64,000 nucleotides of DNA from Candidatus Marinacidobacterium sp. (GTDB lineage Bacteria > Acidobacteriota > Vicinamibacteria > Marinacidobacterales > Marinacidobacteraceae), in assembly GCA_965220965.1 (NCBI GenBank), contig OZ244852.1, positions 2,016,001-2,080,000 of the forward strand. The letters run 5' to 3'. This document shows, piece after piece, positions 50,674 to 61,346 of this stretch. Positions within the stretch are counted from its first letter, which is position 1; each line of letters starts with the position of its first letter. Under the pieces are notes generated by a model. It ran no database searches. It saw nothing but the letters and a program-made list of their open reading frames with translations, and was not told where the DNA came from. Position numbers and translations under genes: made by a program.

Positions 50674-53600
50674 TCAGGGATCCGCGGCCGGGACGACGAC
50701 CCCCCGGACTCCGGCCTCGGCGAGCGCCTGGTTGAGCGCCCCGAGGTCGGGGCCGAGGAGGTCGGCGAGGCGGGTCAGAACCGGGGCCGCCTCGGCCTCG
50801 AGGTCGGCGAGCCGCTGGAAGGAGCCGCCGGTCGGGGGGCCGTAGTTCCGCGCCACGATGCTGTAGAGGTAGGCGACCTGGTTGTCGAGCCGGGGCGGGA
50901 AGTTCACGGTGTCCTGACCGGCCTCGGTCTCGGTCTGGATCAGGGTCTCCTCGATTTCGGTGAGCCCGGCGCCCAGCGCTTCGGCCTGCGCCTCGAGGTC
51001 ATCGCTCCAGCGCTCCGCCGCGCGGGCCCGCGCCTCGACCGCCGCGATCTGGCGGCGGGCCTCGCGGAGCGCGCCGATGCGGTCGTGGATCCGCTCGAGG
51101 AGCGCCTGGACGCGCTGGCCGAGCTCGTGCTGCTGGAGGAGCTCCGCCTCGGTGACGGAAACCCGGGGGTCCGCGGTCACCGCGAACGAGGCGGTTCCGG
51201 CGGATGACGCGGGGCCATCACCCTCGCTCCAGGTGAGTTCGGCGGTCCACCGCCCGGGAGGGACGAACGCGCCTCCGGTGTAGGAAATCGACATGAACGT
51301 GTCGTCCTGGAGCTTCGGCGGCCGGAACTTCAGATCCCAGGCGAGGCGATGGAGCCCGGCCTCGGTCTCGAGGACCGCCTCCCGCACATCGTCGTCGTCC
51401 TCGTCGGGCTCGGCGCCCGGGGCGGGCTTCCTGACGTATTCCCGCACGGTGGCGCCGGCCGCGTCCCGCACCACCAGCGAGGGCGACGCGTCGTCCGCCA
51501 GGTCCTCGGGGAGGTAGTAGTGGAGCAGCGCGCCGGAGGGGCGGTTCTCGGGCGCTCCCGGCCCCCGAAATCCCCGCCCGCCGCCGGTGGCCAGCCGCAC
51601 GGCGTCCCCCGCCGGGAACAGCGCCGGAGCGTCCCACGACCGGCCGGCGAATTCCGCGGCGAGCGCGCGCACCGGGGTCAGGTCGTCGAGCACCTGGAAG
51701 GAGCGTCCCTGCGTCGCCACCAGCAACTCGTCGCCGGCGACCTGCAGGTCGGTGATGGGCGTCGCCGGGATGTCCCCGAACGGGACGAAGACGCGGCCGC
51801 CGTCGAGGCTCAGGAACAGGCCGAACTCGGTCCCCAGGTAGAAGACGCCCCCGTTCTCCGGGTCTTCGCGGATCACCCGGGTCGGATGGCCCGCCGGGAT
51901 GCCTCCGTCCGCCCCGAGCCGGACCCACCGGGCGCCGAAGTCCTCGGTCCGGAAGACGTGGGGCTCGAAGTCGTTCTCGCGGTAGCGGTGGACCGCGATC
52001 GTCGCGCCGCCTTCGACATGCGGCGAGGACTCGATCATGTTGACCGTGCCGCCGGCGGGCATCTCCGGCGGGGTCACATCGACCCAGGCCGCACCCCGGT
52101 CGCGGGAGAGATGGACGCGGCCGTCGTCGGTTCCCGCCCAGAGAACCTCGGGCAGCAGCGGCGACTCGGCCAGCGCGAAGACCGTTCCGTAGACCTCGAC
52201 CCCGGTGTGGTCGTGCTGGACCGGCCCGCCGGGCAGCGGCATCTTCTCCTCGTCCCCCACCGTCAGGTCCGGCGACACGGTCTCCCACGAGAGGCCGCCG
52301 TCCCGCGTGCGGTGGACCTGGTGGGAGGCGTGGTAGACGAGCTCGTGGTCCCACCGGGACACCAGGATGGGGGCATTCCACTGGAACCGGTAGTTCAGGT
52401 CGCGCGGCGCCACCCCGTCGGCGAGCTCGGGATAGAGGATGACGTCGCGGGCGCCGGCCTCGTCGCGGTCCTGGCGCTCGATCTGACCGATGTAGTTCCC
52501 GGCGTAGGTCAGTTCCGGCCGGCCGGGGGTGACCCCGATGTGGCCGCTCTCGCCGCCGGCCACGTCGAGCCAGTGGGCTTCTGGGGAGAGGCCGCTGTCC
52601 GTCCACGACGGAACCGAGATCGTGGAGTTGTCCTGCTGCGCGCCGTAGAGCCGCCGGGGGAAGTCGTCGTCGATGGTCAGCCGGTAGAACTCGGCGGTGG
52701 GCTGGTTGTGGATCGAGGACCAGGTCGCGCCGCCGTCGAGGGTGACGACGGCGCCGCCATCGTTGGCCTCGACCATGATCCGGGAGTCGTCGGGGTTGAT
52801 CCAGAGGTCGTGGTGGTCCCCGTGGGGCGCGCTGACGGTCTGGAACGAGAGCCCGCCGTCCACCGACTTCAGGAAGGGAGCGTTCAGGACGTAGACGGTG
52901 TCCGGGTCAGTCGGATCGGCGACGACGTGCGCGTAGTACCAGCCGCGTCCCCGAAGGCGGCGGTCGCCGTTGATCCGGGTCCAGGCGTCCCCGCCGTCGT
53001 CGCTTCGGTAGAGCCCGCCGCGGTCGCCCGCGGCGGTCACCAGCGCGTAGACGCGGGCCGGATCGGAAGCGGCGATCGAGACCCCGATGCGGCCCACCGG
53101 CGCCTCTTCGGAGGCCGCCGGAAGCCCGCCGCCGACGCGCTCCCAGGTGTCGCCTCCATCCTCGCTGCGGAACAGTCCGCTCTCCGCTCCGCCGTCGATC
53201 AGCGTCCAGGGCTTCCGCTCCGCCTCCCAGATCGCGGCGAAGAGCCGGCGGGGGTTCGACGGATCCATGGCGAGCTCCACCGCCCCGGCGAGGTCGGACA
53301 CCTGGAGGACGGCCCGCCAGGTTCGTCCGCCGTCCTCGGTCCGGTAGACCCCGCGCTCTTCCGAGCGCCCGAAGATCTGGCCAAGCACCGCGACGAAGGC
53401 GCGGTCCGGATCGTCGGAGTCCACCACGATCCGGCCGATGAGCCCGGCGCGGGGGAGGCCCGCATGCGTCCAGGACCGACCGCCGTCGGTCGATCGGTAA
53501 ACCCCGTTCCCGATGGAGATATTCCCGCGCGGACAGGCGGATCCGGTTCCGACCCAGATGACCTCGGGATCCGAGGGCGCGACCGCGACCGCCCCGATGG

Positions 53601-53952
53601 AGCCCACCGCGAAGGCGTCATCCGAGACGTTCGTCCAGGACACGCCGGCGTTCTCGGTCTTCCACACGCCGCCGCCGGTGGAGCCCATCCAGAACTCGAA
53701 GGGGCGGCTCCGCACTCCGGTGACGGTCGTCACCCGGCCGCCGCGGGCCGGGCCGACGGCCCGGAAGTCGAAGCCGGAGAGCACGGCGGCGGGAACCGGG
53801 TAGTCCTCCGGAACCTGCGCGCGCTCCACCGGCCCCTGGGCGGACGCCGACGCCGCCGACAGGATGAGCACGGCAACGGCCAACCGGCCCAGCGGGCGGC
53901 GCGGCGACCTCGCCGCGCCAGGAGAACACTCGATCATCGGGGGTCGCGCCAT
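50674..53952 (-). CDS. VPS10/BNR (Asp-box) repeat glycosyl-hydrolase-like exported protein
   Basis: GPARGGR, many S/T.DGG.SW Asp-boxes, HGDHH.LWI.P, NDGG, QDNS, RFQWNAP and a C-terminal helical bundle. Confidence 0.88.
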   Translation of the reverse strand: MARPPMIECSPGAARSPRRPLGRLAVAVLILSAASASAQGPVERAQVPEDYPVPAAVLSGFDFRAVGPARGGRVTTVTGVRSRPFEFWMGSTGGGVWKTENAGVSWTNVSDDAFAVGSIGAVAVAPSDPEVIWVGTGSACPRGNISIGNGVYRSTDGGRSWTHAGLPRAGLIGRIVVDSDDPDRAFVAVLGQIFGRSEERGVYRTEDGGRTWRAVLQVSDLAGAVELAMDPSNPRRLFAAIWEAERKPWTLIDGGAESGLFRSEDGGDTWERVGGGLPAASEEAPVGRIGVSIAASDPARVYALVTAAGDRGGLYRSDDGGDAWTRINGDRRLRGRGWYYAHVVADPTDPDTVYVLNAPFLKSVDGGLSFQTVSAPHGDHHDLWINPDDSRIMVEANDGGAVVTLDGGATWSSIHNQPTAEFYRLTIDDDFPRRLYGAQQDNSTISVPSWTDSGLSPEAHWLDVAGGESGHIGVTPGRPELTYAGNYIGQIERQDRDEAGARDVILYPELADGVAPRDLNYRFQWNAPILVSRWDHELVYHASHQVHRTRDGGLSWETVSPDLTVGDEEKMPLPGGPVQHDHTGVEVYGTVFALAESPLLPEVLWAGTDDGRVHLSRDRGAAWVDVTPPEMPAGGTVNMIESSPHVEGGATIAVHRYRENDFEPHVFRTEDFGARWVRLGADGGIPAGHPTRVIREDPENGGVFYLGTEFGLFLSLDGGRVFVPFGDIPATPITDLQVAGDELLVATQGRSFQVLDDLTPVRALAAEFAGRSWDAPALFPAGDAVRLATGGGRGFRGPGAPENRPSGALLHYYLPEDLADDASPSLVVRDAAGATVREYVRKPAPGAEPDEDDDDVREAVLETEAGLHRLAWDLKFRPPKLQDDTFMSISYTGGAFVPPGRWTAELTWSEGDGPASSAGTASFAVTADPRVSVTEAELLQQHELGQRVQALLERIHDRIGALREARRQIAAVEARARAAERWSDDLEAQAEALGAGLTEIEETLIQTETEAGQDTVNFPPRLDNQVAYLYSIVARNYGPPTGGSFQRLADLEAEAAPVLTRLADLLGPDLGALNQALAEAGVRGVVVPAADP

Positions 53953-54029
53953 GGCGCGGCGATTCTAGGACCGCAGGGACGGACGCATGCTGAGCCGCCG
54001 TCGGCGCCAGGACGGCGACGTCAGCGGAT

Positions 54030-54045
54030 ATAGCGGATACGCTAT
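54030..54045 (+). promoter_or_regulatory. Putative TA operator palindrome
   Basis: ATAGCG-GATA-CGCTAT inverted repeat 29 nt upstream of the XRE antitoxin, with an AGCGGATA direct repeat (54023-54030, 54032-54039). Confidence 0.55.
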
Positions 54046-54074
54046 GTTCGAACAACGTTGGCGCAGGTCCTCCC

Positions 54075-54340
54075 ATGACCAGACTCAAACGCCTTAAGGC
54101 GCGCTTCATGGAGGATCCCGAATTCCGGGACGAATACGCGCGCGCTGACGAGGAGTACGCGCTCGTGGAGGCGCTGGTCCGCGCCCGCGGGGCGGCGAAA
54201 CTCACGCAAGCGGAGCTCGCCCGGCGTATGGGCACGACCCGGTCGGCGAACGCCGGTCGCCGTCGTTCGCGACGCTCCGGCGCTACGCCGAGGCGACCGG
54301 CGCGCGGCTCTCCGTGAGCCTGGCGCCGGCCGACGGCTGA
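54075..54340 (+). pseudogene. Frameshifted HigA-like XRE antitoxin
   Basis: First frame gives ...LVRARGAAKLTQAELARRMGTT. The expected tail SPSFATLRRYAEATGARLSV is in another frame ending at TGA 54340. The usual ARLE.G segment is missing near 54250-54260. Confidence 0.75.
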
Positions 54341-54355
54341 CCCGCCCGACCGCGC

Positions 54356-55438
54356 TCAGGCCGGGGCCTCGTCCATCCGCTCCACCAGCATGGCATCGCC
54401 GTAGGAGTGGAACCGGTATCCGGCGCGGACGGCCTCGCGGTAGGCGGCGAGCACCGGCTCGCGTCCGGCGAGGGCGGCGACCAGCATGAGGAGCGAGCTG
54501 CGCGGGAGATGGAAGTTCGTGACGAGCGCCGAGATGACCCCGAACCGGTGGCCGGGCAGGATCCGGAGCGAGGTGGCGCGGGAGGCGGGTCCCGGTTCGA
54601 GCACGCCCGGGGTCTCGAGCGCGCGCACCGTGGTCGTTCCCACCGCGACGACCCGCCGACCCGCCTCGAGGGCGTCCCGGATGGCGCGCCGGCTGGCGTC
54701 CGACAGGTGGAACCGTTCGCTTCCGAGTTCGTGCTCGCGCGGGTCCTCGGCGCGCACCGGGGCGAACGTGCCGTAGCCGATGTGAAGCGTCAGGTCCGCC
54801 ACCTCCACCCCGCGCCGCCGCAGCGCTTCGAACACCCCGTCGTCGAAGTGGAGGCCGGCGGTGGGCGCGGCGGCGGACCCTGAAGCCGCCGCGTAGACGG
54901 TCTGGTAGCGCTCCCGGTCCGCGGCCTCGAACCGCGCGGCGTCCGGGCCCTGGCGGCGGATGTAGGGAGGCAGCGGCGTGCTTCCCGCCCGTTCGGCGAG
55001 TTCGATGGGGGTCACGGTCCGGTCGAGGATCCGGATGCGGCGCCGACCTCCGCCGAGGGGTTCCCCGGCCTCGAGCCCGATTCCGCCCGCTTCGAGCCGC
55101 GTCCCGGGGCGCAGCGCGGGCCGGGTGAGCGCTTCGAAGGACGACGGGGCTTCGGGGGCCGGAGCGTCGCCCACCAAAGGACCACCGGGAAGCACCAGGA
55201 TCTCGACCCGCCCTCCGCTGGGGACCCGCTTCGCCTCCACCCGCGCCGGGACGACCCGCGTGGTGTTCCGGACGAGCAGGTCGCCGGCGGCAAGAAGCGA
55301 CGGGAGATCGGAGAAACGGTGGTGGCCGCGCGAACCGTCCGGACGCAGGTGAAGCAGCCGCGACGCGCTGCGGACCGCGGCCGGGTGCTGGGCCACCCGG
55401 TCGGGGGGCAGCTCGAAGTCGAAATCCGAGGTCCGCAT
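54356..55438 (-). CDS. queA: S-adenosylmethionine:tRNA ribosyltransferase-isomerase
   Basis: DFDFELP, PLPPYI, YQTVYA, AAPTAGLHF, VGTTTVRALE, TNFHLP.SSL and SYGDAM. Confidence 0.96.
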   Translation of the reverse strand: MRTSDFDFELPPDRVAQHPAAVRSASRLLHLRPDGSRGHHRFSDLPSLLAAGDLLVRNTTRVVPARVEAKRVPSGGRVEILVLPGGPLVGDAPAPEAPSSFEALTRPALRPGTRLEAGGIGLEAGEPLGGGRRRIRILDRTVTPIELAERAGSTPLPPYIRRQGPDAARFEAADRERYQTVYAAASGSAAAPTAGLHFDDGVFEALRRRGVEVADLTLHIGYGTFAPVRAEDPREHELGSERFHLSDASRRAIRDALEAGRRVVAVGTTTVRALETPGVLEPGPASRATSLRILPGHRFGVISALVTNFHLPRSSLLMLVAALAGREPVLAAYREAVRAGYRFHSYGDAMLVERMDEAPA

Positions 55439-55457
55439 GAACGCGGATGGGCCCGGC

Positions 55458-56498
55458 TCAGAGGTCGCCGGAGTCTCCCGGCGCCGGGAAGAGCGTCCCC
55501 GCCGGAAGCGCCGCTTCGCGGCCGAGGTGGCGGGCGCCCCGAGTCGTGATCATGCGGCCGCGCGCCGTCCGGCGCAGGAAGCCCCGGAAGATCATGAACG
55601 GCTCGTGGACTTCCTCGAGGGTGCGGTTGTCCATGCCCACGGTGGCGGCCAGGTTCGCGAGCCCCACCGGGCCGCCCGCGAAGTTGTCGAGCACGCTCTC
55701 GAGGATCTTCCGGTCGAAGCGGTCGAGCCCCTCCTCGTCCACCTGCGCCACATCGAGCAGCGCGAGCGCCGCGTTCCGGTCGACGGTTCCGGAGCCCTTC
55801 ACCTGGGCCCAGTCGCGCACCCGCCGAAGCAGGTTGTTCGCCACCCTCGGCGTGCCCCGCGAGCGGCTCGCGATCTCGACCGCCGCCTCGGAGGAGAGCG
55901 GCGCGCCGAGCACTCCCGCGGCCCGCTCGAGCACCCGCTGGATGTCGCCGGCGGCGTAGAACTCGAGCTGGTGGACCAGCGGGAAGCGGTCGCGGAGCGG
56001 TCCGGTGAGCAGGTCGGCGCGGGTCGTGGCGCCGATGAGGGTGAACGGCGGCAGGTCGATCCGGAGGGTGTGCGCCCCGAGCTTCTCCCCCACCATGATG
56101 TTCACGTAGCGGTCCTCCATCGCGGGGTAGAGGACCTCGGCCACCGCCGGTCCGAGCCGGTGGATCTCGTCCACGAAGAGCACGTCGCGCGGACCCAGCG
56201 CATTCAGCAGGGCCACCATGTCCCCGGTCCGGGGAATCAGCGGCCCGGCCGAGATGTGCATCGTGACCCCGAGCTCGTTCGCCAGCACGGCGGCGAGCGA
56301 GGTCTTGCCGAGGCCCGGCGGCCCGTGGAGGAGGACGTGGTCCATCGCATCGCCGCGGGCGGAGGCCGCGCGGACGCTGATCTCCAACTGGTCCACGACG
56401 GCGCGCTGGCCGATGTAGTCGGAGAAATCCCGGGGACGCAGCGTCCGGTGGAACTCCTCGTGGTCCCGGCCGCCGCCGTCAGCCAGTCCCGGGGGCAT
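55458..56498 (-). CDS. ruvB: Holliday junction branch migration helicase RuvB
   Basis: LRP..F.DYIGQ, GPPGLGKT, FVDEIHRL, LYPAMED, GATTR, RDRF, RGTPR and R..RGR. ATG 56498 overlaps the upstream stop (TGATG). Confidence 0.95.
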   Translation of the reverse strand: MPPGLADGGGRDHEEFHRTLRPRDFSDYIGQRAVVDQLEISVRAASARGDAMDHVLLHGPPGLGKTSLAAVLANELGVTMHISAGPLIPRTGDMVALLNALGPRDVLFVDEIHRLGPAVAEVLYPAMEDRYVNIMVGEKLGAHTLRIDLPPFTLIGATTRADLLTGPLRDRFPLVHQLEFYAAGDIQRVLERAAGVLGAPLSSEAAVEIASRSRGTPRVANNLLRRVRDWAQVKGSGTVDRNAALALLDVAQVDEEGLDRFDRKILESVLDNFAGGPVGLANLAATVGMDNRTLEEVHEPFMIFRGFLRRTARGRMITTRGARHLGREAALPAGTLFPAPGDSGDL

Positions 56499-58504
56499 CA
56501 GTGCTCCCGCTGGCGGCGATCGTCCGGGAGCGAGGTGAACTCGCCCGACTCGGCTTCCGGCGCCGGCAGCCGCAGGATGCGCATCAGGTCGAGCGCGTTC
56601 CCGTGGGGGAGCACCCCGTCCCGGAGCTGGTAGTCGAACTCCATCCGGCCGCCCGCGATCCGCTCGCGGAAGTGCATGTTCCTGACGCGCCCCGGAAGCT
56701 CGTGCTCGAGCTCGACGAGCGCCAGGTCGTGGGTCGTGAGGACCCCCACCGCGCCGCGCTGGGCCAGCTCGCGCACCAGGGCCTGCGCCGCCAGCCGCCG
56801 GTCGTTGGAGTTCGTGCCCTGGAGGACTTCGTCGAGAAGGAACAGAAGCGGCTCTTCCGCGGAGCCGGTGTCCAGAACGGCGCGGAGGGCGAGCAGTTCG
56901 GCGAGGAAGCGGGAGACGCCGTCCTGGAGCGAGTCGTGGACGGCGATCGAGGCGCCGAGAGCGAGGGGGCCGATCAGGAACCGGCTGGCCGCCACCGGGG
57001 CGCCCATCCGGGCGAGAACGAAGTTCGCGCCGATGGCCCGCAGGAGCGTGCTCTTGCCCGCCATGTTGGACCCGGTGACGACGAGCATTTCCGCCTCGCC
57101 GCGGCCGAGCTTCACCGAGTTGCGCTGCAGGCGCCCCTCCGGAATCAGCGGGTGCCCGAGGTGGAGGGCCTCGAGGCCGGGGACGTCGTCGAAATCGGCG
57201 AACACGTGGCCGGGGCGCTCCGCCGCGTACTGGGCCATGGCGAGGATCGCGTCGAACTCTCCCGCCGCCCGCCGCCAGTCCACCAGCGCGGCGCCGTGCC
57301 GCTCCCTCCAGCGGTCGAGCGCCCGCTCGTGATGGCTGCCCCAGAAACCGAACGCCGCAAAGGGGGCGAACATCGGGTTGCGTCGCCACTGCATCATCGT
57401 CTGCAGCCGCTGGAGCTTCCGGAGCGGAGCGGGCGCCTCGCTCAGGCGCTCGCCCAGCCGGCGGAGCAGAGGGGCCTCGAACTCCCCGGCGAGAAGGATC
57501 CGGGCGATCTCGAGCGTCGGCGCGGTTTCCCGGGCCACGTGCCGGACCGTCTGTTCGTGACGCCTCACCCGCGTCCGGTTCCACAGGCCGACGCCGACGG
57601 AGACCCACACCGGGACGACGAAGAACAGCGGCCCCGCAGCGCCGGTGAGCCAGGCCGCGAGCCCGCCCCCCATCGCGGCGGTCAGCAGCGTGAAGGCGGG
57701 GGTGAGCCAGCGCCTGATCTTCGGCGGAAGGGGCTGCGGAAAGGGGAACTGCGGCGCGTCGTCCCCCGCCCCGGGCGCGGTGGCCGGCGACCCGTCGGGA
57801 GGCGGCCCAAGCCAGGTCATGACCATGGCGAAGTCGGCGAGCGGCCAGGGGGTCAGCGCCCCGGTCTCCGCAACGGCGTCCCGGAGATCGCCGCGGGGGG
57901 TCAACTCGCGGATGGCGGCCTGTCGGGCGCGGGCCGCTTCGACCGGGGCGGGGTGGAGCATCCAGTCCGCCAGAACCTCGCCCCCGGCGTCGGTGCGCCA
58001 GTCGGCCAGCCGGTCGAAGAGCTGTCCGATGCCGAACAGGTCGAGATGCCGGTCGAGCCCCGGCTTGCCGAGCTGGCGGATCCGGCGGTTCCGCTCCGCG
58101 AGCCGCTCCTCGTCGCGCCGGTCGAGCTGCCGGACCGGCGCCTCCCCGGTCCGGAGGACATCCTCCGGCTTCGCCTCGTCGACTTCCTCTTCGTCGTCCC
58201 GGTCGACCCGCTTCGCCGCCCGGTGGTAGAGCTCGGCGACGTGCTGACGGCGAATGGCCTGCCGAAGCACCCGGTCGTGCTGAACCGCAATCGCCACAAA
58301 CGAGGCGAGCGGCAGGAGCAGGACCCACCACAGGGTCCAGTCGGTCCGCAGCCCGAGCGCCATGCCGACACCCAGGGCCACGACCAGAACCCGCCCCCGG
58401 GAGAGCCACCGCCCGTGGCGGAAGAGCTTCTCGGCGCGACCCACTTCCTCGCGGGTGCGATCCCACCAGGAGTGGACCGGGTCCACGAACAGCGGCCGGC
58501 TCAT
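56498..58504 (-). CDS. Membrane-anchored MutS-related ATPase (domain V, no mismatch-binding or Smr domain)
   Basis: Two hydrophobic hairpins; LDLFG, HPLI, VTGSNMAGKSTLLR (Walker A), DSLQDGVSRFLAEL, LLDEVLQGTNS (Walker B), TTHD and FDYQLR.G. Confidence 0.88.
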   Translation of the reverse strand: MSRPLFVDPVHSWWDRTREEVGRAEKLFRHGRWLSRGRVLVVALGVGMALGLRTDWTLWWVLLLPLASFVAIAVQHDRVLRQAIRRQHVAELYHRAAKRVDRDDEEEVDEAKPEDVLRTGEAPVRQLDRRDEERLAERNRRIRQLGKPGLDRHLDLFGIGQLFDRLADWRTDAGGEVLADWMLHPAPVEAARARQAAIRELTPRGDLRDAVAETGALTPWPLADFAMVMTWLGPPPDGSPATAPGAGDDAPQFPFPQPLPPKIRRWLTPAFTLLTAAMGGGLAAWLTGAAGPLFFVVPVWVSVGVGLWNRTRVRRHEQTVRHVARETAPTLEIARILLAGEFEAPLLRRLGERLSEAPAPLRKLQRLQTMMQWRRNPMFAPFAAFGFWGSHHERALDRWRERHGAALVDWRRAAGEFDAILAMAQYAAERPGHVFADFDDVPGLEALHLGHPLIPEGRLQRNSVKLGRGEAEMLVVTGSNMAGKSTLLRAIGANFVLARMGAPVAASRFLIGPLALGASIAVHDSLQDGVSRFLAELLALRAVLDTGSAEEPLLFLLDEVLQGTNSNDRRLAAQALVRELAQRGAVGVLTTHDLALVELEHELPGRVRNMHFRERIAGGRMEFDYQLRDGVLPHGNALDLMRILRLPAPEAESGEFTSLPDDRRQREH

Positions 58505-59121
58505 TGGCTTCTCCGCGCCGCCACCCGGCCGATGGCCTGGCGGAACTGGGCTTCGAGGGTTTCGTCCGGGCTCTCGGAGAGGACCGAAGCGACGACCTCC
58601 TCGATCCGGCGGCGATCGGCGAACTGGAGGTTCATCAGCGCGCTCACCAGGTCCTGGCGCCGCAGATCGGCCGCCGAAGCCTCGGGTTCCGGGCCGCCGG
58701 GGGCGTCCGTGGCCAGATCGTCAGGCAGAGACTCCGCCAGCTCGGTGATCACCCGGCGGGCGATCCGCAGCCCGACGCCGGGCGCGCCCTGGAGGCGCTT
58801 CACGTCCTTCGCCCGGATCGCCTCGCGGAGGCGTCCCGGAGTCAGCGCGAGCAGATTCAGGGCGACCGCCGGTCCGACGCCGCTGATGCTCCGGAGCCGG
58901 TCGAACAGGTCCGCCTCCTCGGAACTCCCGAACCCGTAGAGCACGAACCCGTCGTCGCGATGGACCAGGGTCCGCGCCACCAGCGTGGCTTCCGCTCCCG
59001 GGCCGGGGAGGCGGGCTTCCGCCCCGGCGGATGTCTGGAGCCGGAACCCGACACCGCCGACCTCGAGGAGCACCGAGCCCTCGGAGGTCTCGACGACCGC
59101 GCCCCGGAGCCGCTCGATCAC
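58501..59121 (-). CDS. ruvA: Holliday junction branch migration protein RuvA
   Basis: MI..LRG, VGGVGF, LYGF...E..LF..L..ISGVGP..AL, PGVG...A.R...EL and SAL.NL.F. Confidence 0.93.
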   Translation of the reverse strand: MIERLRGAVVETSEGSVLLEVGGVGFRLQTSAGAEARLPGPGAEATLVARTLVHRDDGFVLYGFGSSEEADLFDRLRSISGVGPAVALNLLALTPGRLREAIRAKDVKRLQGAPGVGLRIARRVITELAESLPDDLATDAPGGPEPEASAADLRRQDLVSALMNLQFADRRRIEEVVASVLSESPDETLEAQFRQAIGRVAARRSQ

Positions 59122-59684
59122 CCTCTGCTCCCCGGCGCGACCGGCCGGGCCCGGGCGAGGCGCATCGCGGCCCGCCGGGCGTCGAGGTGGGTGACCGCCA
59201 CCGCGAGCGCGTCCGCCGCATCCTCCTGCGCGGGCGCCTCGGCGAGCCCGAGGCGCCGCGCCACCATGCGCGCCACCGCGGGTTTTTCCGCCGCGCCGTA
59301 GCCGGTGAGGGCCTGCTTCACCGCGCGCGGCGCGTACTCGGCGAGCCGCAGTCCCGAGAGCGCCACCAGCACCGCCCCCCGAGCGTGGCCCAGGGTCAGC
59401 GCCGAGCCCGCGCTCCGGGCGGAGAAGACCGACTCGACCGCCGCCTCCTCGGGGGTGAACCGCCCCACGACGTCCCGGACGCCGTCGTGGAGACGGCGGA
59501 GCCGATCCACCAGCGCCTCGCCCCGGGGACAGCGGACCACCCCGAAATCCACCGCCGTCAGACGGCCGTCAGTCTCCGAGACCACGCCCCAGCCGGTGAT
59601 CCGGGAGCCGGGATCCACGCCGAGCACGCGGAGGGTTTCGCCCGCCGCGCTCCCGTCGCCGTGGGGACCGTCCGCTGACTTCAG
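59118..59684 (-). CDS. ruvC: Crossover junction endodeoxyribonuclease RuvC
   Basis: LGVDPGS..TGWG, AVE..F, LGHARG, EYAP..VK..LTGYG.A.K and DAADALAVA..H. Start is either GTG 59627 or CTG 59684 (CTGA overlap with the yebC stop). Confidence 0.93.
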   Translation of the reverse strand: MKSADGPHGDGSAAGETLRVLGVDPGSRITGWGVVSETDGRLTAVDFGVVRCPRGEALVDRLRRLHDGVRDVVGRFTPEEAAVESVFSARSAGSALTLGHARGAVLVALSGLRLAEYAPRAVKQALTGYGAAEKPAVARMVARRLGLAEAPAQEDAADALAVAVTHLDARRAAMRLARARPVAPGSRG

Positions 59685-60427
59685 GAGGCGGCCTCGAGAT
59701 CGTCCTCGTCGAGGTCGCAGTTGGCCCAGACATGGGTCACGTCCTCGTGGTCCTCGAGCGCCTCGAGCAGCCGCAGGACGCGCGAAACATCGCCCCCCCG
59801 GACCTGAACGTGCTGGGTCGGGAGCATCGCGATCTCTTCGCTCTCGCGGGCGATCCCGTCGGCCTCGAGCGCGTCGCGCACCGCCCCGAAGGCCTCCGGC
59901 GGGGTGCGCACATCCCAGTGCTCTCCCTCGTCCAGCACGTCGTCGGCGCCGTGCGCCAGCACGAGCTCGATCAGGTCGTCCTCGGTGGCCTGGTCCTTGG
60001 GGATGAGGAACTGCCCCGCCTTCTCGAACATCCAGTTCACCGAACCGCTCTCGCCGAGGTTGCCGCCGTGCTTGGAGAACAGGTGGCGGACATCGCTCAC
60101 GGTGCGGTTTCGGTTGTCGGTGGCGGCCTGCACGAAGACCGCCACCCCTCCAGCGGCGTATCCCTCGTAGCTGGCGTCCTCCAGCCGGAACCCTTCGAGT
60201 TCGCCCGTCCCCTTCTTGACCGCCCGATCGATGCTGTCACGCGGCACGTTGCCGGCCTTGGCCTTCTCGACGGCGAGGCGCAGGCGGGGGTTGAACTGGA
60301 GGTCGCCGCCTCCGAGGCGGGCGGCCATCGTGACCTCCTTCAGGAGGCGGGTGAACGCCTTGCCCCGCTTCGCGTCGACGATCGCCTTCTTGTGGCGGAT
60401 CGAATGCCACTTGCTGTGTCCCGACAC
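59681..60427 (-). CDS. yebC: YebC/PmpR family protein
   Basis: SGHSKW.SIRHKK...DAKRGK, NPRLR, YEGY..GG, TDNRNRT, GSV.WMF and LEDHEDV..V..N. Confidence 0.95.
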   Translation of the reverse strand: MSGHSKWHSIRHKKAIVDAKRGKAFTRLLKEVTMAARLGGGDLQFNPRLRLAVEKAKAGNVPRDSIDRAVKKGTGELEGFRLEDASYEGYAAGGVAVFVQAATDNRNRTVSDVRHLFSKHGGNLGESGSVNWMFEKAGQFLIPKDQATEDDLIELVLAHGADDVLDEGEHWDVRTPPEAFGAVRDALEADGIARESEEIAMLPTQHVQVRGGDVSRVLRLLEALEDHEDVTHVWANCDLDEDDLEAAS

Positions 60428-60518
60428 GAAACGACGACGACTCCCTCACTCCGGCCCCGGGACGCGGCGGCGACACCGGACGGCCGGGCAGCATCCTACC
60501 CCACGTCGGAGCGCCCGA

Positions 60519-61346
60519 TCAGTCGTCGAAGACGAAGACCGGTTCGGCGTAGTACCGGACCCGGCCGGACCCGAAGCGGTCCGCCACCAGCGCCTCGAGG
60601 CGGCGGCGCTTCTCGGGCAACGGGATCGACATCTCGAGGAACGAGAGCGGAAGGTCGAGGCCGAGAACCCGGCGGGGCACGAGGAACCGGGTGATCCCCG
60701 AGGGCAGCAGCTCCCCGGCGGCGGCGGCCTCGCGAACCTCCTCGCGGGAGACCGGCTCGTATTCCAGCACGCCGCCGAACTCCGGATGGGCGCGCCGCAC
60801 CTCGTCGAGGTTCGCGTGGGAGATCCGCCCCACGCGGGCCCGGGGATGCGCGGCGAGGGCGCCGATCCGGCGGAGGGCGGCGGCCCGTTCCGGCGGCGCG
60901 TGCGGCCCGACGAACCCGAGGGCGCTTCCGTCCGGGCGGTGCAGACGGCAGAGCGCCGTCTCCCCCGGACGCGGTTCGTCCGACTTCCGGACGCCGGCGG
61001 GCGGCGCGGCCTCGAGAGCCTCGGCCTCGCGGCGACGGATGACGTGGTTCCACTGCTTCAGGTCCAGGCCCGGATCATCGAGGCGCTCGGTCTGCACCAG
61101 CGCGTGCGGGACCCCCATGCGCGCGAGCGCCGCCACCCGGTTCGCCCCGTCGAGCAGCAGGCGAGCGCTCCCCCGGTCGCGCGCCACGATCGGCGGGTTG
61201 CGCAGCACCCGGTCGGCGCCCAGCCGTTCGATGAGGGCCGCGACCCGGGCGAGATCCACTTCCTCGTGGAACCGGATGGCCCGGACCGGCAGAACCTCGA
61301 GAGTCGGAATGGCCTCCCCGCCGGGGAGGCCGGACGGTCCCGCCAC
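60519..61346 (-). CDS. ParB/Srx-fold protein resembling full-length SbnI (free L-serine kinase)
   Basis: FHEE, NPPIV, LLDGANR, VQ, WNH, YEPVS.EEV.....GELLPSGITRF....R.L.L..PL..L and C-terminal RYYAEPVFV. Collinear with S. aureus SbnI motifs as I recall them. Confidence 0.7.
   Translation of the reverse strand: MAGPSGLPGGEAIPTLEVLPVRAIRFHEEVDLARVAALIERLGADRVLRNPPIVARDRGSARLLLDGANRVAALARMGVPHALVQTERLDDPGLDLKQWNHVIRRREAEALEAAPPAGVRKSDEPRPGETALCRLHRPDGSALGFVGPHAPPERAAALRRIGALAAHPRARVGRISHANLDEVRRAHPEFGGVLEYEPVSREEVREAAAAGELLPSGITRFLVPRRVLGLDLPLSFLEMSIPLPEKRRRLEALVADRFGSGRVRYYAEPVFVFDD

Follow-up and report, generated by a model that had tools for sequence, protein, structure and literature searches.

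We describe a gene for a MutS-like protein that lies between ruvA and ruvB in a 64,000-nucleotide stretch of the Candidatus Marinacidobacterium sp. genome (assembly GCA_965220965.1, contig OZ244852.1, positions 2,016,001 to 2,080,000; hereafter the window). On the minus strand of the window, six tightly packed genes run in the order yebC-ruvC-ruvA-MutS-like gene-ruvB-queA (54356-60427), and the same arrangement is kept throughout the order to which the organism belongs, the Marinacidobacterales. The encoded protein joins a MutS core and ATPase to two predicted membrane hairpins and belongs to a large MutS paralogue family, as yet uncharacterised, whose members are about 600 amino acids long. 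We favour, at about even confidence, the view that its position is a fixed relocation giving co-expression only; a joint function with RuvAB is nevertheless plausible.

A MutS-like gene separates ruvA from ruvB

The genes of the cluster and the principal parts of the MutS-like protein are as follows, in the direction of transcription and with the parts of the protein set below its gene.

59681-60427, minus strand: yebC (YebC/PmpR family), first gene of the cluster; NF001030 312 bits against a cut-off of 243, Pfam TACO1/YebC
59118-59627, minus strand: ruvC, Holliday junction resolvase; TIGR00228 133.8 bits against 100.65, Pfam RuvC E 3.4e-43
58501-59121, minus strand: ruvA; TIGR00084 136 bits against 85
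56498-58504, minus strand: MutS-like gene, 668 amino acids (P0001), predicted membrane-anchored MutS core with ATPase
58280-58393, minus strand: hydrophobic hairpin 1, residues ~38-75, predicted transmembrane (TM) segments TM1 and TM2, from hydropathy, flanking Arg/Lys and the structural model
57581-57709, minus strand: hydrophobic hairpin 2, residues ~266-308, predicted TM3 and TM4, within the MutS core region
57185-58069, minus strand: MutS core (domain III-like) region, residues ~146-440, split by hairpin 2, from structure alignment and profile match
56561-57082, minus strand: MutS domain V ATPase, residues 475-648, Pfam MutS_V, with Walker A at 57047-57073
56501-56566, minus strand: C-terminal tail, residues 647-668, motif [ED][FY]T[SA]LP, from the alignment of the order's proteins
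55458-56498, minus strand: ruvB; NF000868 440 bits against 282
54356-55438, minus strand: queA, last gene of the cluster; NF001140 354 bits against 324

All five genes flanking the MutS-like gene were identified by matches that pass curated NCBIfam equivalog cut-offs, which bears out the gene order read in a first-pass annotation of the same DNA. That annotation had also pointed to overlaps on either side of the MutS-like gene, and both can be read in the sequence: ATGA at 58504-58501 combines the ruvA stop codon with the start of the MutS-like gene, while TGATG at 56500-56496 combines its stop codon with the ruvB start, one base being common to both. The ruvC and ruvA genes overlap by 4 nt, and gaps of 53 nt and 19 nt separate yebC from ruvC and ruvB from queA respectively. 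The MutS-like gene is probably co-transcribed with the ruv genes.

The base composition of the MutS-like gene resembles that of its neighbours (GC 0.72-0.76), as does its GC content by codon position (0.78/0.49/0.92), and this agreement argues against a recent insertion. Together with conservation of the intact gene across the order, composition rules out recent horizontal acquisition, in keeping with what had been proposed from the overlaps.

The arrangement is conserved throughout the order

A homologue of the MutS-like protein was found in all 41 sampled genomes of the order, which span three families (designated f1, to which the window belongs, f2 and f3) and 16 genera. The order-wide genome tallies, namely homologue presence, retention and the occurrence of MutS2, include one genome flagged as unpublished (G033), on which none of our conclusions hinges. 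Each genome of the order carries one family copy, all other matches being at the strength expected of MutS1 or MutS2.

Every one of the 20 loci fetched, from at least 10 genera and all three families, possesses the order yebC-ruvC-ruvA-MutS-like gene-ruvB-queA. The gap between ruvA and the MutS-like gene is no more than 26 nt in 19 of these loci, and that between the MutS-like gene and ruvB no more than 32 nt in 14; for these measurements the start codon nearest the upstream stop was chosen, which favours small gaps. Within the order, the gene thus behaves by position as a component of the RuvABC operon, conserved among the ruv genes of relatives, and the earlier description of it as an established part of the cluster holds in 20/20 loci, with mostly tight junctions.

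In three of the 20 loci, all from f3, 2.3-2.9 kb of unrelated DNA has come to separate the MutS-like gene from ruvB. Two of these carry a 634-amino acid FeoB gene at the same place (L026:2780-4684 and L029), and the remaining locus carries genes for a DDE transposase of an insertion sequence (IS) and a 23S-rRNA-IVP protein (L027:2229-4902).

The protein combines a MutS core and ATPase with two hydrophobic hairpins

The sole Pfam domain detected in the MutS-like protein is MutS_V (PF00488), at residues 475-648 (E 1.8e-23; 84 bits against a cut-off of 30.2). An alignment of 16 diverse relatives revealed invariant Walker A (G478-T486, GSNMxGKST) and Walker B (L556-E559, LLDE) motifs together with H592-D593; D558-E559 is likewise invariant in the alignment of the order's own proteins, along with G478-T486 and H592. 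The domain V ATPase is therefore intact, as had been noted from the sequence. No Pfam match was obtained for MutS_I (PF01624), MutS_II (PF05188), MutS_IV (PF05190) or Smr, which agrees with the first-pass statement that the protein has no recognisable mismatch-binding or Smr domain. PF05192 has been precomputed on many homologues and falls below threshold on the window's protein. Profile matches to MutS entries in the PDB extended down to E 2e-37, one of them covering the start of MutS domain III.

Hydrophobic segments occur at residues ~38-54, 57-75, 266-286 and 291-308. These form two pairs, each with a turn of 2-6 residues and with Arg/Lys-rich flanks, and they match the two transmembrane hairpins proposed earlier, in the sequence as well as in the structural model. 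The topology was derived from hydropathy, from the Arg/Lys flanks (positive-inside rule) and from a helical hairpin model. Given the charged flanks and the very short turns, all soluble parts are put inside the cell; accordingly the N-terminus, the 190-residue segment between the hairpins and the ATPase are all predicted to be cytoplasmic. A periplasmic ATPase, named at the outset as a ground for rejecting a role at recombination intermediates, is not what hydropathy and the Arg/Lys flanks predict.

The AlphaFold2 monomer model (predicted local distance difference test, pLDDT, 80.6; predicted template modelling score, pTM, 0.82) has each hydrophobic pair capping a long helical hairpin, H9-54/H56-104 for the first and H261-287/H293-339 for the second. 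The top Foldseek matches of this model are MutS structures (E 5e-18). By VIA structural alignment, residues ~146-660 of the model superpose on MutS (1w7a_B) with Z 26.1 over 407 aligned residues and a root-mean-square deviation of 3.4, and residues 147-654 on the Thermus MutS2 core (7vuk_A, chain residues 1-488) with Z 24. Chain 7qv3_w, from an entry describing MutS2 on a collided disome, aligned with Z 23.9.

Hairpin 2 leaves the core at the place where the levers and clamp of MutS arise, and no clamp domain was detected; we therefore infer that the modelled hairpin represents lever tips that may be embedded in the membrane in place of carrying a DNA clamp. A profile-profile alignment to the MutS1 of the same genome, a complete five-domain protein encoded at another locus (P0127), is confined to the ATPase and the final part of the core. 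Because this alignment missed the hairpin region, hairpin 2 is equated with the MutS levers from its order in the chain and from the helices of the model.

The protein belongs to a large uncharacterised MutS family

Membership of the MutS superfamily is evident from the domain V ATPase, with Walker A, Walker B and the conserved histidine, and from the adjoining core fold. The protein falls outside MutS1 and MutS2. Scores against MutS1 models are far below cut-off (NF003810, 98.8 bits against 480; TIGR01070, 84.9 against 641.7) and, whilst the ATPase motifs and core fold are common to both, domains I, II and IV of MutS1 are unmatched. The MutS2 model gives 71.5 bits against 400 (TIGR01069). Like MutS2 (endonuclease MutS2/RqcU), the window protein begins with the core domain, has no domains I and II and shares the core and ATPase fold; unlike MutS2, it has hydrophobic hairpins and no detected Smr or clamp domain. 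MutS2 also possesses a KOW domain. The model for KamC, the reactivase ATPase of lysine 5,6-aminomutase, matches over the ATPase region only (NF052383, 77 bits against 300). Neither the Pfam ABC_tran domain nor an ABC membrane domain is present, and NCBIfam ABC ATPase models give weak matches at the P-loop and Walker B (E 1e-5 or worse), far below their cut-offs. A reading of the gene as part of a defence system was dropped, since PADLOC gave weak P-loop matches only.

The protein is instead one of a large family. Among the candidates scored there were 692 matches, many with both MutS_III and MutS_V, and a search with the N-terminal 440 amino acids, which exclude the ATPase, recovered 1670 representative clusters at E<=1e-3 and 468 at E<=1e-10. 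Source names among the homologues include 'MutS-related protein, family 1' (for a Sandaracinus member), and Atlas clusters are similarly named. The two hydrophobic hairpins can be recognised in 107 of the 111 family sequences examined, so that membrane anchoring is predicted to be a trait of the family. Longer proteins containing the N-terminal 440 amino acids, that is, fused forms, were not found, which the search tool itself rates as weak evidence.

The architecture recalls the MutS3 subfamily of Lin, Nei and Ma (2007; PMC2190696), described there as having the ATPase near the C-terminus, the core in some members, and no domain I, domain II or Smr. In that account, MutS3 is scattered over distant bacterial groups, Myxococcus among them, and its function is unstudied. 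The window protein fits this description: the ATPase domain lies near the C-terminus and no MutS domain other than the core, itself variably present in MutS3, accompanies it. Both sets of proteins have a C-terminal ATPase, lack domains I, II and Smr, and are patchily distributed. We tentatively equate the family with MutS3 on the grounds of architecture and distribution, a comparison made by description. The words 'membrane' and 'transmembrane' do not occur in the text of PMC2190696. The family is already catalogued as a MutS subfamily without assigned function, and in the literature we found no account of its membrane anchoring or of an insertion between ruvA and ruvB, although Ogata et al. 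(2011) and Sachadyn (2010) may describe its architecture.

Two contigs within the family carry unexpected taxonomic labels (L046/L059). The family gene on a contig labelled Bifidobacteriaceae is nearly identical to a copy in a metagenome-assembled genome (MAG) of the Vicinamibacterales (branch lengths 0.059 and 0.062), and that on a contig labelled Heliomicrobium groups with Blastocatellia. Both are probably mis-binned or mislabelled MAG contigs and not instances of gene transfer. Sequences from the window's own class fall in the tree with MAGs labelled Vicinamibacteria or Vicinamibacterales, while the closest homologues that carry a name are labelled Acidobacteria.

Linkage to ruv genes is restricted to the order

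The first-pass annotation had held that the proposed tie to RuvABC should be judged by whether the linkage persists among relatives. It does so inside the order (20/20 loci) but not beyond it. Elsewhere in the class, in other orders, none of 20 loci has any of the five cluster genes within ~5 kb of the family gene, and none of 80 loci from other lineages has any of them nearby. The latter are the best 80 among 596 matches confirmed in the species-genome collection and derive from other Acidobacteriota, Planctomycetota, Myxococcota, Binatia, Gemmatimonadota and others; at least 1.5 kb of flanking sequence was available on both sides in 66, on one side in 11 and on neither in 3. One of the 80 contains an AAA+ match (27% identical) that is below RuvB-like strength.

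The cluster itself is older than the insertion in the sense that sister orders possess it uninterrupted. In five of five complete or near-complete sister-order genomes, ruvA and ruvB are adjacent in yebC-ruvC-ruvA-ruvB and the MutS-like gene lies elsewhere; queA falls within the fetched stretch in three of these five. The sister-order cluster yebC-ruvC-ruvA-ruvB-queA thus has the same genes in the same order as the window, the difference being that in the window's order a gene for a 600-725-amino acid membrane protein separates ruvA from ruvB. This distribution is most simply explained by a single move of the gene into the ruvA-ruvB spacer, in the order's ancestor.

Elsewhere the family gene keeps no constant company. 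Across the 100 loci outside the order, the largest cluster of neighbouring proteins is represented in only seven. Recurrent neighbours comprise an extracytoplasmic function (ECF) sigma factor, QueG, a histidine kinase, a JAB protein, a MacB/FtsX permease, ThiF and an M16 peptidase, and no repair gene is among those that recur. In six loci (L044, L072, L076, L088, L101 and L128), mostly from Bryobacterales/Solibacteraceae, the family gene is succeeded by a co-oriented queG (epoxyqueuosine reductase), with an overlap of a few nucleotides in L044. As a second queuosine gene beside the family, after the queA of the window, queG may be there by chance.

Sequence features of the linked proteins

An alignment of 21 ruv-linked and 92 unlinked sequences revealed no residue specific to linkage, that is, no column with a residue present in at least 85% of the linked and at most 15% of the unlinked rows. 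Features confined to one family were observed. The C-terminal motif [ED][FY]T[SA]LP is present in 11/11 sequences from f1 and in 0/10 from f2 and f3; this tail has a basic/acidic end and has the appearance of a short linear binding motif. In the f1 proteins a charged segment has additionally been inserted after hairpin 1, and a variable, proline-rich and acidic one before hairpin 2, the latter being very long in G005 and G010 (proteins of 725 and 714 amino acids respectively).

The families also differ in MutS2. In whole genomes (G000-G040), a protein scoring above the TIGR01069 cut-off is encoded by all 16 genomes of f2 and f3 and by none of 25 from f1, the window's genome included, where MutS1 cross-matches only. 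Since MutS2 was lost, and the tail and inserts were gained, in a single event each within one family, the correlation between them is weak.

On the side of the putative partners, the RuvB alignment ends that we inspected showed no terminal feature specific to the order. Prediction of a complex between the MutS-like protein and RuvA gave a score of 0.00 against a mark of 0.32; run without controls, this is evidence neither way.

Surroundings of the cluster

A scan of 54000-61200 found no promoter-like sites, and one terminator-like site, which lies within a coding region and is fewer than in shuffled sequences; neither scan is informative at such GC content. Upstream of yebC by 91 nt, on the same strand, is an open reading frame (ORF) encoding 275 amino acids (60519-61346, minus strand) with a coding-type GC content at third codon positions (0.91) and no Pfam match at E<=0.001. 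Downstream of queA lies a gene for a 1092-amino acid protein with Sortilin/Vps10 and BNR/Asp-box repeats (50674-53952, minus strand).

Discussion

In our reading, the MutS-like gene was relocated once and has been retained in the operon since, with co-expression as the sole consequence, an interpretation to which we give roughly an even chance. A single copy of the family gene would have entered a pre-existing yebC-ruvC-ruvA-ruvB-queA cluster in the order's ancestor, between ruvA and ruvB, and would have been inherited there as an intact, co-transcribed gene whose product has an activity of its own, independent of RuvAB. Two subunits would dimerise via their ATPase heads, as all MutS proteins do, with the long hairpins (counterparts of the levers by their place in the chain, and without a clamp domain) pinned in the inner membrane. 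The dimer might thereby span from its heads to the membrane as an ATP-gated arch, a picture drawn purely from the anatomy of the model, and such an arch could hold a bulky cytoplasmic substrate, much as MutS2 accommodates branched DNA or ribosomes in its wide channel.

Several observations argue for relocation with co-expression only. The linked proteins lack any derived residue of their own, and feoB or an IS transposase gene has intruded ahead of ruvB in three of 20 loci. The yebC and queA genes keep a fixed order beside the ruv genes in sister orders and do not encode Holliday junction proteins, hence linkage here need not mean shared function; and the absence of ruv linkage and of repair neighbours elsewhere implies that the family as a whole is independent of Ruv. 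A number of points weigh against it. The insertion falls exactly between the genes for the two subunits of one machine. In the window's family f1, the genes nearly always overlap at both junctions or lie a few nucleotides apart, as would be the case were coordinated synthesis important. Across the order, the copies are intact in all 20 loci (ORFs of 596-725 amino acids). At E<=1e-30 the gene is retained in 49 of 50 other genomes of the order, the sole miss being a genome 66% complete, against 60 of 100 genomes from other orders of the class, a lower figure than for the ruv-embedded gene. Judged by sequence identity, the protein diverges at about the rate of RuvA: median identities to the window are 48.7% within f1 and 37.1% to f2 and f3 for the MutS-like protein, and 55.1% and 36.4% respectively for RuvA. 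A history of one relocation is also less than certain. Family trees place the 21 linked sequences in two clades, f1 and f2+f3, with f1 grouping with three long-branched sequences of the same class; the approximately unbiased (AU) test did not reject a single clade of the 21 (p 0.203), so that a single origin of the linkage is compatible with the data and not demonstrated by them. The arch, for its part, is extrapolated from a predicted monomer. Finally, other MutS paralogues without domains I and II are reported to bind Holliday junctions (PMC11275761).

A rival proposal, close to the membrane tether or clamp for recombination intermediates suggested in the first-pass annotation, is that the protein is a functional partner of RuvAB, a membrane-pinned MutS dimer co-produced with RuvA and RuvB and acting on the same substrates, which we consider possible though doubtful. 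Such a dimer might hold four-way junctions or reversed forks at the membrane, or might restrain branch migration in an anti-recombination role like that of MutS2. The proposal draws on the retention of the ruvA-ruvB position in every locus across three families, on the short gaps at both junctions, on the higher retention of the gene within the order, and on a fold that equals the MutS2 core, whose wide channel, as stated in PMC11275761, fits Holliday junctions and D-loops. The inserts and tail gained in f1, the family in which MutS2 was not found, can be added to these, with the reservation that gain and loss are single events in one family. The 100 loci outside the order, however, contain neither ruv linkage nor recurrent repair neighbours, and no DNA-contacting MutS domain (I or IV) was detected. 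The linked proteins have no derived residue in common, the inspected ends of RuvB bear no mark of the association, and unrelated genes have been able to enter the ruvB junction in three of 20 loci. The strongest form of the proposal, in which the MutS dimer is a true third component of RuvAB, its arch holding junctions or reversed forks at the inner membrane or restraining RuvAB and, in f1, replacing MutS2, strikes us as unlikely.

Two further explanations dispense with RuvAB altogether and are much less probable again. The dimer, with eight transmembrane helices and an ATPase of the ABC superfamily, might be a transport or mechanotransmission device, resembling a half-transporter or MacB/FtsX and having no role with nucleic acids. 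Four predicted transmembrane helices do precede such an ATPase in each subunit, a few homologues are labelled 'ABC-type multidrug transport system fused ATPase/permease subunit' by one source, and the weak ABC ATPase matches at the P-loop and Walker B point the same way. Yet the outer turns span just 2-6 residues, with no domain on the periplasmic side, and the cytoplasmic portion comprises a complete MutS core, levers included, unlike the coupling helix arrangement of ABC proteins. The Pfam ABC domains are missing as well, and we regard transport as very unlikely. Equally remote, and if anything harder to credit, is a role linked to translation, in which the membrane-anchored protein would deal with ribosomes that stall at the membrane, and the presence of yebC, whose product relieves ribosome stalling, and of queA, a tRNA-modification gene, would be meaningful. 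The structure does resemble the MutS2 core, including the chain from the collided-disome entry, and MutS2 is reported to rescue collided ribosomes (PMC11275761) and YebC2 to resolve ribosome stalling (PMC11990639); the want of MutS2 in f1 and the queG gene following the family gene in six Bryobacterales-type loci would also suit it. Against this, the protein has no Smr or KOW match and scores far below the MutS2 cut-off, and no ribosomal or quality-control neighbours were found elsewhere. Moreover, yebC and queA flank the ruv genes in sister orders that lack the insertion, and their presence is therefore uninformative about the MutS-like gene.

We conclude that this is a real and unusual operon architecture and at most a candidate for a new system. 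Among the loci surveyed, the tightly packed position between ruvA and ruvB is the family's only consistent genomic association and, being order-wide, it yields a concrete hypothesis: action on branched DNA at the membrane. The ruv-linked and unlinked orthologues provide a natural comparison set. Should the link prove to be positional only, the locus would be a clear case of a gene captured inside a two-subunit operon and kept across a whole order. The family concerned is a large orphan, with its 1670 representative clusters on the non-ATPase part, to which earlier classifications assign no role beyond membership of a MutS subfamily. If the protein is indeed a third component of RuvAB, this would be the first function for a very large and uncharacterised MutS subfamily.

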